A stretch of DNA of 7,499 nt from a virus (Duplodnaviria; Heunggongvirae; Uroviricota; Caudoviricetes). The notes under the pieces are model-generated. The model was not told where the DNA came from, ran no database searches, and worked only from the letters and a program-made list of their open reading frames with translations. Each line of letters opens with the position of its first letter. Positions within the stretch are counted from its first letter, which is position 1. The position numbers and the translations under genes are program-made. Below, piece after piece: positions 650 to 3,974 of the stretch. The stretch lies in the IMG/VR virus record IMGVR_UViG_2671180433_000015. One strand, given 5' to 3'.

Positions 650-922
650 TTACCTCCAGATGCGTTGCTGATATGTGCGGGACGGACGCGGCGGGCGTTC
701 GGAATAAGGGAGCCTGACGGAAATTATCCAGTGTCGGAAGTCAGGATTGAGGCCTTTCTGAAACTGGTATCCACGTCTGCGGTAATTCTGAATCAGCCAC
801 TCGGCCTGTTCTTCAGTGCATTGGTCATGCTGGTACCAGTCATATTTGAATGCGTGAGAGCGCCGTCCGTGTCTGCTGGCAGGGTCGGCATCAGAATTGT
901 GGTGTTTGGTATTGTGCGCCAT
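650..922 (-). CDS. Small basic phage protein (about 90 aa), function unknown
   Basis: Part of track ORF 650..1003. The track start at 1003 is a TTG inside the U-tract of the upstream terminator, so the first ATG (922-920, MAHNTKHH...) is preferred. Arg-rich C-terminus. Stop TAA 652-650 is embedded in the SD of the next gene. Confidence 0.4.
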   Translation of the reverse strand: MAHNTKHHNSDADPASRHGRRSHAFKYDWYQHDQCTEEQAEWLIQNYRRRGYQFQKGLNPDFRHWIISVRLPYSERPPRPSRTYQQRIWR

Positions 923-1020: not shown

Positions 1021-1092
1021 AGTAAAAATGTACTGAAGTCAATGACGTGCCATCACAGTTAAAATATGACAGACTCTATTTACGTAGAGATG

Positions 1093-1971
1093 TCAGACTG
1101 CAAGATCCAAGGGAAGATCAGAAATATCCTTTAATCTTTTACCATTAACCATCACGGAAAGCATGTCAGCTGCATCGCTGAGCCCCAGTATTTCAACTGC
1201 TGATATAAGTTCATAAAGCGCAAAATGATACACGCAATCTATATCACCAGTACCAAGAGCAATAGACGCCAGACGACTTGGAGTAGGCTCAGCAGTAACA
1301 ACCATTACATGAGGGAGATTTCCCTTACGGTTGCGAATAAGATTTAATGCCTCAGAACGAGCATTCTGGGCCCGGTCGCTTCTTATTGTCCATTTGCAGG
1401 AAATACTTGCGTGTAATATTGGTTTCCCACCATTCGAACTCCTGAGAGCTGACATGCGGGTAACAGAATCATCCACCAGTAATTCAGGACTGTTGATAAC
1501 TTGATCACATTCAGGTTCTCTTTCAACAATAATATCTGGTGAAATCGTATAATCACTCCCCAGTGCAGCAGCTAGCTGAGGATTACTTTTTGCAGCACTA
1601 TCCAATGCTATAAGATGGGCATATTGTTCATATTTAGCTATCTCTAATCTGTTTCTACCAGAAACCTGATGTACATTCCATTTTCCAGGGCGTAAGTGGC
1701 TGAGTTTAAAAAAGGTTTTTTCTATAAACTCTGCGCAGATACTCTCAAACTGATTACCAGATGTTTGCCCTGCAACACGTTCACCAATCGTTTCAGCCTG
1801 CAAGAAGCGAGCAATTTCTCTTGCTATAGCTTTACTGTTTTTGTTACTGCTATCTGCGTTACTAACAACTCCGGCAGTATTAATTGTGAGCGTATTCAGT
1901 AACAATTGGGCATGAAACTCCTTTCTGGCTTCAGCAAAACCAACTATGCTGTCAACCAAATCTCCATTCAT
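1093..1971 (-). CDS. Putative Type II restriction endonuclease, NgoMIV/Cfr10I-like class (292 aa)
   Basis: Track ORF 1093..2106 trimmed to ATG 1971-1969 (MNGDLVDS...). That start lies 13 nt after the methyltransferase TGA stop (1987-1985) and 9 nt after a GAAGGA SD. Motifs, numbered from this start: SPD146, S191-C-K193, E208, and R197-S-D199-R200 four residues after the lysine. This matches the non-classical PD...SxK...E active site plus R-x-D-R recognition element as I recall it for NgoMIV, Cfr10I, Bse634I and SgrAI. Co-oriented with and immediately downstream of a C5-methyltransferase. Confidence 0.6.
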   Translation of the reverse strand: MNGDLVDSIVGFAEARKEFHAQLLLNTLTINTAGVVSNADSSNKNSKAIAREIARFLQAETIGERVAGQTSGNQFESICAEFIEKTFFKLSHLRPGKWNVHQVSGRNRLEIAKYEQYAHLIALDSAAKSNPQLAAALGSDYTISPDIIVEREPECDQVINSPELLVDDSVTRMSALRSSNGGKPILHASISCKWTIRSDRAQNARSEALNLIRNRKGNLPHVMVVTAEPTPSRLASIALGTGDIDCVYHFALYELISAVEILGLSDAADMLSVMVNGKRLKDISDLPLDLAV

Positions 1972-1984
1972 TTCTGGATTTCCT

Positions 1985-3109
1985 TCAGGCTGCTTGACTA
2001 TTCTTACTGATGTTATTCTTATACCGTCCCTGCAAAACTCCATACACATATTGTGCGATTTTTGCCGCAAATAGCGGTGGAACAGCATTCCCGATCTGCT
2101 TTGCAATCTCAGTTTTTGAACCGGTAAAAATGAAATTATCAGGAAAAGACATTAATCTCGCTGCCTCACGATGAGTTATTGGCCGATCCTCTTCCGGATG
2201 TAAATATCGCCCTTTCTCCGGTTTGAAAAACTCAGTACGAATCGTTACTGAAGGTTTGTCCCACCACAGACGTCCAAACAAATCGGTCCCTCCAGATTTC
2301 TTTTTTAGCCAGCACGCCGGGGTTATATCAGGTCTTTTTTTCTGTAAATCGAAACGGTTACCTCCTGGTGGAACCGCTTTATATCGCTCCAGAGAAACAG
2401 GAGTGGGATTACGCCCAAAATGTAAGTTCAGCGGAGGAAGTTCATTACGAATATCAGTTCCAACAGGAGCAGGTAAGTCACCAATTGCATCACGCGTACA
2501 GACCCATTCAGGCAAAGCGACATCCTTATCAGGGGAACGATGCGTTGGTGCTGGCGGGAACGCCGGAATACTATGCACATCGAAGAGTTCTCGTTTGATA
2601 CCGATTGCTATCGTTCGTTTTCTTGTCTGAGGTACTCCATAGTCAGCAGTATTCAACACCATTGGATTAAGCAGAATAAAGCCCATGGATTTCGCTCTAA
2701 ACGTAATGTCCGCAAACTCATCGCTTATCAGCAATCCGGGGACATTTTCCATGACGAACATACAAGCCCTTGAACGCTCAATGACATCCATATAAGGCTC
2801 CCACAATGCTCTTCGGTGATCACCATAACGATTCTTATTCAATAAACTGAATCCCTGACACGGGGGGCCACCTATGACCACATCAGCCTCAGGAACAGTA
2901 TTGCTGGATGCCCACTCCTCAATATTTGCCTGAACTCCATGCAAACCAAAATTGGCATTGTAGGTATTTATAGCTGCAGCATTATTATCAATAGCAAGGA
3001 TACTTTCAAAGTAGTCAGACATCTCTCCATGAAGAAAACCATAAGATAATCCACCTGCCCCACAAAAGAGGTCTATCACTCTGAATTTATTTAATTCTTT
3101 CATCCGCAT
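1985..3109 (-). CDS. DNA (cytosine-5)-methyltransferase (374 aa)
   Basis: Canonical m5C-MTase motifs in order: I DLFCGAGGLSYGF (FxGxGG), IV GGPPCQGFS (catalytic PCQ), VI ENVPGL (ENV), VIII QTRKR, IX REAARLMSFPDNFIF, X QIGNAVPP. About 150 aa between motifs VIII and IX forms the variable target-recognition domain. ATG at 3109 has a GAGG SD 7 nt upstream. No N-terminal HTH extension. Confidence 0.9.
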   Translation of the reverse strand: MRMKELNKFRVIDLFCGAGGLSYGFLHGEMSDYFESILAIDNNAAAINTYNANFGLHGVQANIEEWASSNTVPEADVVIGGPPCQGFSLLNKNRYGDHRRALWEPYMDVIERSRACMFVMENVPGLLISDEFADITFRAKSMGFILLNPMVLNTADYGVPQTRKRTIAIGIKRELFDVHSIPAFPPAPTHRSPDKDVALPEWVCTRDAIGDLPAPVGTDIRNELPPLNLHFGRNPTPVSLERYKAVPPGGNRFDLQKKRPDITPACWLKKKSGGTDLFGRLWWDKPSVTIRTEFFKPEKGRYLHPEEDRPITHREAARLMSFPDNFIFTGSKTEIAKQIGNAVPPLFAAKIAQYVYGVLQGRYKNNISKNSQAA

Positions 3110-3192
3110 CCATATGCCTCAGATTAATGTTGAGCGTCTTACAGGACGCGTAATGTTAACTGGGGCTTTCTCTATCTGCCTTTTGGTGTTCA

Positions 3193-3217
3193 TGCCTGAG
3201 GCAGACAGCCTCAGGCA
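3193..3217. other. Perfect 9-bp inverted repeat (stem-loop) between the QueH-like gene and the methyltransferase gene
   Basis: TGCCTGAGG (3193-3201), 7-nt loop CAGACAG, CCTCAGGCA (3209-3217). GC-rich stem. No U-tract follows on either strand, so it is not a canonical intrinsic terminator. Confidence 0.5.
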
Positions 3218-3226
3218 CCCGCAGCA

Positions 3227-3255
3227 ATTCTACTTAACTCACGTCACCTCGCCAA
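3227..3255 (-). promoter_or_regulatory. Candidate sigma70 promoter for the R-M cassette
   Basis: Minus-strand reading: -35 TTGGCG (3255-3250), 17-nt spacer, -10 TAGAAT (3232-3227). This would place the inverted repeat at about +3 to +27 of the transcript. Sequence match only. Confidence 0.25.
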
Positions 3256-3287: not shown

Positions 3288-3974
3288 TCACTCCTTCTCT
3301 TCTTTTCCGTAGTGGAGTTGGCCAATTTTGATAAGAGGGCGTCCCTGAGATTTGCGGTGTAGATTGGTATCGCGCAGAGAATACACACAGCCACAATATT
3401 CCTGCTGATAGAATTTTTCGCGCTTGCTGATTTCAATCATACGGGACGAGCCGCCCTGCTTGCGCCAGTTATAATCCCAGTACACCATACCCGGATAATG
3501 CGCAACAGCTCGCCGCCCACACTCGTTAACCTGCTGCATATTTTTCCAGCGTGAAATGCCCAGTGAACTACTGATCACACTGAAACCATTTTCAGCAGCG
3601 TACAACGCTGTCCGCTCAAAACGCATGTCAAAACACATGGTACAACGGATCCCCCTCTCAGGCTCCCATTCCATTCCTTTGGCACGTTCAAACCAGTTGT
3701 CGGTGTCGTAATCAGCATCGATAAACGGCACGCCGTGTTGTTCAGCAAAGCGAATATTTTCATCCTTACGAATTAAATACTCTTTCTGAGGATGAATGTT
3801 CGGGTTGTAGAAAAAGATGGTGTAGTCGATTCCCGAGGCCTGAAGCGCCTCCATCACTTCACCGGAACATGGAGCACAGCAAGAGTGCAGTAGTAGTTTG
3901 TTTGCCCCGTTTGGAAGCTCCAATTTAGGCCGTTTGAAATCAGCAATAGTCATAAATATTTTTATTGGGGTCAT
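3288..3974 (-). CDS. QueH-like epoxyqueuosine reductase family protein (DUF208), Fe-S protein
   Basis: 228-aa track ORF. N-terminal [15 protein letters not shown] motif and C-terminal EYCGCVYS cysteines fit the conserved Cys pattern of DUF208/QueH as I recall it. An alternative ATG at 3953 would give MTIADF...; neither start has a strong SD. Confidence 0.6.

Follow-up and report, generated by a model that had tools for sequence, protein, structure and literature searches.

An NgoMIV-family restriction endonuclease predicted to cleave GCCGGC, encoded beside a C5 methyltransferase in a lambdoid prophage of Escherichia coli

The stretch analysed here, called the window, is 7,499 nucleotides (nt) of the IMG/VR virus record IMGVR_UViG_2671180433_000015. 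On its minus strand lie the two genes of a restriction-modification (R-M) system, M for a C5 cytosine DNA methyltransferase and, directly downstream, R for an endonuclease. A preliminary description of the window had noted an endonuclease motif pattern at 1093-1971 and had proposed an enzyme cutting a CCGG-centred site, but had not given the strand. Translation places the R open reading frame (ORF) on the minus strand, with its ATG at 1971, its stop codon at 1093-1095 and a product of 292 amino acids (aa); the plus-strand frame over 1093-1971 is riddled with stops. The RefSeq coding sequence coincides with this ORF in coordinates and strand, and the R protein is identical to WP_001012717.1. 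R is thus already annotated, under the RefSeq name 'NgoMIV family type II restriction endonuclease'. The two genes, and the codons of R whose NgoMIV counterparts have known or presumed roles, are as follows.

1093 to 1971, minus strand: gene R, NgoMIV-family endonuclease, 292 aa (ORF; PDB, Pfam and PADLOC matches; RefSeq)
1985 to 3109, minus strand: gene M, C5 cytosine DNA methyltransferase, 374 aa from the ATG at 3109 (PF00145, TIGR00675, RefSeq)
1534 to 1542 (nt 1542-1534), minus strand: S144-P145-D146 of R, D146 aligned with the catalytic D140 of NgoMIV and invariant in 80/80 homologues
1393 to 1401 (nt 1401-1393), minus strand: S191-C192-K193, K193 aligned with the catalytic K187 of NgoMIV; S191 and K193 invariant in 80/80
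nt 1746-1744, minus strand: E76, aligned with E70 of NgoMIV, which we take, from the NgoMIV structure, to be the fourth acidic active-site residue; invariant in a 40-sequence alignment
1372 to 1383 (nt 1383-1372), minus strand: R197-S198-D199-R200, aligned with R191-R194 of NgoMIV, the reader of the central CCGG (PMC2532715, PMC3413111); invariant in 80/80
1351 to 1353 (nt 1353-1351), minus strand: E207, aligned with the catalytic E201 of NgoMIV (PMC5389614), in the spacing K-x13-E; invariant in 80/80
1852 to 1854, minus strand: D40, aligned with D34 of NgoMIV, a reader of the outer G:C pair (PMC5389614); invariant
1273 to 1275, minus strand: R233, aligned with R227 of NgoMIV, a reader of the outer G:C pair (PMC5389614); invariant
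nt 1767-1765, minus strand: Q69, aligned with Q63 of NgoMIV, which makes a minor-groove contact to the outer C (PMC3413111); invariant in the 40-sequence alignment

The preliminary description had placed SPD with its aspartate at residue 146, S-C-K at residues 191-193, and R-S-D-R at 197-200 with its first arginine four residues past K193. All three were borne out by the translated ORF, SPD occupying residues 144-146. The catalytic glutamate is likewise present, but at residue 207 and not at 208, which is an alanine; this off-by-one difference is of no consequence. The resulting spacing, D146-x46-K193-x13-E207, fits the motif published for CCGG-family enzymes, PDX46-53KX13E (PMC3413111).

R was searched with phmmer against all PDB chain sequences, hits being considered to E<=10. 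The crystallised NgoMIV enzyme (1FIU/4ABT) was matched with E=9.6e-119. R residues 12-292 align with NgoMIV residues 5-286 with a single one-residue gap, and 185/281 positions (65.8%) are identical; an R residue number equals the NgoMIV number plus 6. NgoMIV residues D34, Q63, E70, D140, E201 and R227 correspond to D40, Q69, E76, D146, E207 and R233 of R, S185-C-K187 to S191-C-K193, and R191-S-D-R194 to R197-S-D-R200, so that the D, K, E and R-S-D-R noted in the preliminary description do fall on NgoMIV D140, K187, E201 and R191-R194. Divergence from NgoMIV is greatest at R residues 152-171 (35% identity) and 252-271 (40% identity). The sole Pfam family reported for R was PF09015, NgoMIV_restric, with E=6.1e-127 and 423 bits against a cut-off of 23.2, the match spanning profile positions 1-275 of 275. 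A PADLOC REase_II model gave 417 bits over profile positions 5-286 of 286, and a scan of R against NCBIfam found no matching model. On sequence grounds R belongs to the NgoMIV family proper. At about 66% identity to a crystallised enzyme, R is expected to have the same fold as NgoMIV.

Conservation within the family was assessed from a scan of one genome per species, in which at least 512 relatives of R were found; the best 80 of these, from 80 species genomes and 59-78% identical to R, were compared. Residues D40, D146, S191, K193, R197, S198, D199, R200, E207 and R233 were invariant in 80/80 homologues, and Q69 and E76 were invariant in a 40-sequence alignment.

What these residues do is known from NgoMIV and from structurally related enzymes. 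The RXDR stretch contacts CCGG identically in NgoMIV, Bse634I and SgrAI (PMC3413111, PMC2532715). In NgoMIV, catalysis involves E201, and the outer G:C pair is held by contacts from D34 and R227 (PMC5389614) and, at O2 of the outer C, from Q63 (PMC3413111). Glu80 of Bse634I is the counterpart of NgoMIV E70, and Bse634I reads the outer pair through Pro203 and Asn73, with few contacts (PMC3413111); in SgrAI the outer base pair is read by Arg31/Lys96 (PMC3413111, PMC2532715). Cfr10I and Bse634I (RCCGGY) and SgrAI (CRCCGGYG), all of type IIF, have in common with R the permuted PD...K-x13-E site and an RxDR at the N-terminus of the recognition helix, with CCGG contacts identical according to the literature; they differ from R in how the outer pairs are read and in having no detectable sequence similarity to it. 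Searches of all PDB chains with R alone, and then with the 40-sequence profile, gave no match to Cfr10I, Bse634I or SgrAI at E<=10. The kinship of R to the RCCGGY and CRCCGGYG enzymes is therefore at the level of fold and mechanism, by way of the published structure comparisons.

These results uphold the CCGG core proposed in the preliminary description, R being a direct homologue of NgoMIV with the CCGG readers kept. The grouping of NgoMIV with Cfr10I, Bse634I and SgrAI, on which that proposal drew, stood for NgoMIV; homology to the other three could not be detected by sequence. GCCGGC and RCCGGY had both been offered as example sites. Because D40, R233 and Q69 are kept and there is no similarity to the RCCGGY enzymes, G^CCGGC is favoured and RCCGGY is the less supported of the two. 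We infer that R is an active, Mg2+-dependent nuclease of the CCGG family with a PD...(S)xK...E site, most likely binding two sites as a type IIF homotetramer, in which R197, D199 and R200 would read the central CCGG and D40, R233 and Q69 the outer G:C pairs. Cleavage would be at G^CCGGC and would leave 5'-CCGG overhangs. NgoMIV itself, from Neisseria gonorrhoeae MS11, is a type IIF enzyme of 286 aa that cleaves G^CCGGC. It has the same residues as R at E70, D140, K187 and E201, at R191, D193 and R194, and at D34, Q63 and R227, and it too has a methyltransferase gene upstream on the same strand. The two differ in that R is carried by a lambdoid prophage of E. coli and not by a chromosomal locus of other bacteria, and in that the partner methyltransferase of R is of another C5 lineage.

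The partner gene M is intact and co-oriented with R. RefSeq starts it at the ATG at 3103, giving 372 aa, and names the product 'DNA cytosine methyltransferase'; its matches are to PF00145 (184.6 bits) and to TIGR00675, dcm. Between the end of M and the start of R are 13 nt, and an AAGGA Shine-Dalgarno sequence for R sits within the last codons of M, an arrangement consistent with co-transcription, M then R. R would accordingly be expressed behind M from one transcript. M would methylate a cytosine in GCCGGC, or in a broader site containing GCCGGC, and so protect host and prophage DNA; that M protects the R site we infer from the requirement for viability.

In 73/80 NgoMIV-family loci a co-oriented C5 methyltransferase was found by tblastn directly upstream, the full-length matches being of about 313 aa. 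These proteins, like M, belong to PF00145 and are encoded directly upstream of R on the same strand, but M, at 374 aa, is unlike them in coming from a lineage otherwise paired with an HNH nuclease of about 325 aa. This lineage, compared over loci L085-L090 and L121-L158, is large and mostly gammaproteobacterial, with identities of 65-99%. Its HNH-partnered members include those of Edwardsiella tarda and Idiomarina and about 30 IMG/VR prophage contigs, the latter with methyltransferase identities of 47-76%. An NgoMIV-partnered subgroup comprises E. coli, Klebsiella michiganensis and the IMG/VR loci L117-L120 and L155, with R-type genes 80-85% identical to the R of the window. A neighbour-joining tree puts the NgoMIV-partnered methyltransferases in a near-clade that arises within the HNH-partnered ones, which is most simply read as replacement, beside this M lineage, of the HNH gene by a gene of NgoMIV type.

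Between the two groups the C-terminal halves of the methyltransferases are 80-93% identical, and in the variable (target-recognition) region position 237 alone is diagnostic of group. The specificity of M was thus probably unchanged by the swap of partners, as judged from these alignments. If so, the HNH nucleases become candidate non-homologous cutters of GCCGGC or of an overlapping site. Against the PADLOC REase_II models the HNH partner gave no strong match (best 29.9 bits), and it matches known proteins only through the HNH motif, McrA being the match in the PDB. An R.NmeDI-type identity for the HNH partner was considered, the HNH-partnered pair having an overlap of about 9 codons between M and R that was seen as similar to NmeDI, and was dropped as unsupported by these matches. 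R.NmeDI we take to recognise RCCGGY and its cognate M.NmeDI to recognise RCCGGB.

The M-R segment of about 2 kilobases (kb) is present in 60/5426 complete E. coli genomes, always on the chromosome and once per genome, and 59 of the 60 copies are at least 99% identical. Carriers include the atypical enteropathogenic E. coli (EPEC) strain E110019, O157:H7 cattle isolates and O111:H11 strains, and the whole window is 99.7% identical to O111:H11 strain 88-19539. The cassette was found only in prophages and IMG/VR contigs; the INPHARED phage collection held no match to it. Intactness was examined in 27 full-length IMG/VR copies, and in 24 of these both M and R are free of indels. Two others, L113 and L114, have a truncated R through the same 1-nt deletion, at about codon 84, in a run of six A/T pairs (A6/T6), GAAAAAACCTTTTTT; the two copies have different sequence backgrounds, and slippage may hit this run repeatedly, as a hotspot at which R is inactivated.

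1702 to 1734, minus strand: region of the GAAAAAACCTTTTTT run, about codon 84 of R, site of the deletion in L113 and L114

A further IMG/VR copy, L132, has a 1-nt indel in M, at position 769 of the M-R segment, with R intact. Were it genuine, such an indel ought to be lethal, which makes an assembly error the probable cause.

Taken together, the observations on R make it very probable that the gene encodes an intact NgoMIV-family enzyme, predicted to cut G^CCGGC and paired with a methyltransferase in a prophage cassette. Several points weigh against this reading. The site, the cleavage position and the oligomeric state of R are extrapolated from an enzyme that is 66% identical, and a single-sequence AlphaFold2 model of R, made with no alignment input, had a predicted local distance difference test score (pLDDT) of 34.8 and a predicted template modelling score (pTM) of 0.22, too low for the model to be of use. 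M is only about 22-32% identical to the methyltransferases of about 313 aa at the 73 loci, many of the tblastn alignments spanning only the N-terminal conserved motifs, and the usual downstream partner in its own lineage is an HNH nuclease of 322-326 aa (PF01844). Since this lineage is not the usual one of the NgoMIV family, homology does not establish the specificity of M. The frameshift of R in two related copies implies that the endonuclease is dispensable in some strains. In the literature searched we found no paper characterising R or any other E. coli prophage enzyme that is GCCGGC-specific or NgoMIV-like. Finally, the 35.6-kb prophage of E110019 has 11 GCCGGC sites where 9.5-16 are expected, which is no depletion, and the window has 0 where 1.5-1.8 are expected; these counts are uninformative either way, because an element that methylates itself needs no avoidance of the site. 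In the same prophage (L001 1-35620) two other palindromes are scarce, GGCGCC with 0 sites against 8.7-9.5 expected and CGGCCG with 1 against 2.9-9.5, which may mean that sites of other host restriction systems are avoided, or may be a bias of E. coli in general.

Four other explanations of R were weighed. One, that the motifs arose by chance in a protein that is no nuclease, is ruled out: SPD, SxK and RxDR are individually common, and nothing further favours this explanation, but here they lie within a full-length match of E=1e-118 to a crystallised nuclease and within a Pfam match 400 bits above its cut-off. Another is that R is a CCGG-family enzyme of degenerate RCCGGY specificity, like Cfr10I, Bse634I or BsrFI, and not a strict GCCGGC enzyme. 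The catalytic motif and RxDR are common to all these enzymes and so do not discriminate, and a methyltransferase lineage unusual for the NgoMIV family could have a broader site. The outer G:C readers D40, R233 and Q69 are nevertheless kept in R and invariant in its family, where Bse634I uses Pro203 and Asn73 instead (PMC3413111), and searches of the PDB to E<=10, with the R protein or with the 40-sequence profile, brought up none of Cfr10I, Bse634I and SgrAI. We regard RCCGGY specificity as quite unlikely. It is highly improbable that R, once paired with a foreign methyltransferase, shifted to a site other than GCCGGC. R and M do come from different lineages, and R does diverge from NgoMIV most strongly in the two segments at 152-171 and 252-271, with 35% and 40% identity; but all the known base-contacting residues are unchanged in R, the R proteins that partner this M lineage (80-85% identical) remain in the tight NgoMIV family, and position 237 is the sole position in the variable region that separates NgoMIV- from HNH-partnered methyltransferases.

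According to the remaining explanation, R is a remnant, silent or in decay, and the locus acts in practice as a solitary prophage methyltransferase. The truncating deletion in L113 and L114 speaks for this, as does the frequency with which R is lost from prophage R-M systems. In the window, however, the R ORF has its full length and has kept all its catalytic and recognition residues, with a good Shine-Dalgarno sequence ahead of its ATG, and R bears no pseudogene flag in RefSeq; the near-identity of 59 of the 60 complete-genome copies and the absence of indels from 24 of the 27 IMG/VR copies point the same way. A remnant is therefore unlikely, and an intact NgoMIV-family endonuclease predicted to cut G^CCGGC is the reading that we prefer.

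The M-R cassette lies in a lambdoid E. coli prophage, in its early-right (nin-like) region, with replication genes and QueH on one side and DUF968, RusA and Q on the other. On the minus strand the order is cI/cro-like, YdaT, a helix-turn-helix replication initiator, a DnaC/IstB-like ATPase, DUF1627, DUF977, QueH and M, followed by R, a 90-aa ORF, DUF968, RusA and antiterminator Q. That slot of the prophage is filled, in thousands of E. coli genomes, by hokD, a type I toxin locus of the hok/sok type found in Qin-like prophages between QueH and the 90-aa ORF with DUF968. The hokD locus of E. coli FDAARGOS_401 (L161) was used as the reference. Homology between the window and L161 runs through QueH, a hok promoter-like site and the hok mRNA leader to position 3116, with 98.8% identity, and resumes at 1021, at a terminator-like hairpin, with 85.5% identity onwards. 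Between these points the window has about 1022-3115, the 2.1-kb M-R cassette, in place of about 287 base pairs that hold the mok/hok coding part in L161. The window therefore shares with hokD the promoter-like site, the 5' leader and the terminator hairpin, but lacks the mok/hok coding part and has the M-R cassette instead. Two features of the window are retained at the edges of the cassette.

3116 to 3255, minus strand: hok promoter-like site TTGGCG-17-TAGAAT (3255-3227) and mRNA 5' leader, by homology to L161
994 to 1020, minus strand: intrinsic-terminator-like hairpin AACCCGC-TTC-GCGGGTT with a T-run, from a terminator scan, 73 nt past the R stop

The upstream break point is 6 nt upstream of the first M ATG. 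The leader includes a hairpin with the arms GCCTGAGGC and GCCTCAGGC, and its GAGG, at 3120-3117, lies 7 nt upstream of the M ATG at 3109; in L161 the distance from the corresponding GAGG to the presumed mok ATG downstream of it is 9 nt. A promoter scan around the cassette found sites no more numerous than in shuffled sequence, and the promoter is assigned on homology to the hok locus and not on that scan. Rfam RF01794 (sok) matched the minus strand at 3220-3040 with 61 bits against a gathering score of 59; the alignment is good only in its 5' two-thirds, from 3220 to about 3117, and the remainder enters the M coding sequence. The hairpin past R matches in position the hairpin downstream of hokD in L161. 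The hok leader was absent from Klebsiella and from the other NgoMIV-partnered loci examined, and the fusion to hok is thus specific to the E. coli version.

These comparisons suggest a history that we put forward tentatively, as possible and short of probable: that the R-M pair is chimeric, an NgoMIV-family endonuclease having displaced the ancestral HNH partner of the M lineage, and that the cassette then replaced the mok/hok coding part of hokD. If this is true, the HNH nucleases of about 325 aa, such as those of Edwardsiella tarda, of Idiomarina and of many IMG/VR prophages, would form an unrecognised, non-homologous family of cutters of GCCGGC or of an overlapping site that contains CCGG. 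It would also mean that an R-M module has come under hok-type expression signals, one addiction-type module having been swapped for another.

In Klebsiella michiganensis (L082-L084) a homologous pair, with M 79% and R 80% identical, stands in a different prophage context, in the order DinI, M, R, LexA-like repressor, DUF968 and Q, without the hok leader; the difference in context indicates a cassette that travels as one unit among lambdoid prophages. In the window, the gene upstream of the cassette, QueH (3288-3974, minus strand), is an epoxyqueuosine reductase (PF02677, 221 bits) in the prophage early region, a tRNA-modification enzyme as phage cargo, and is conserved beside hokD in many E. 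coli prophages. Directly downstream of the cassette is the 90-aa ORF (650-922, minus strand), the hypothetical protein WP_001447823.1, which has no Pfam match and is conserved beside DUF968 in prophages with and without the cassette. An archaeal C/D-box RNA match, sR55, at 199-260 on the plus strand and within the DUF968 coding region, scored 23.9 bits against a gathering score of 35 (E=0.016) and is regarded as chance.

The identification of R alone matters little, as it adds a member to a well-characterised family and the call is already public. There is some practical value in knowing that about 1% of complete E. coli genomes, O157:H7, O111 and atypical EPEC strains included, have a prophage-encoded system whose predicted target is GCCGGC. 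The cassette would restrict incoming unmethylated DNA and could stabilise its prophage; it could bar transformation and phage infection, and would add a 5-methylcytosine mark. Only the proposed partner swap, within an HNH-associated M lineage, and the replacement of hok go beyond routine annotation, and these may be of interest for how R-M modules are assembled and move between prophages.

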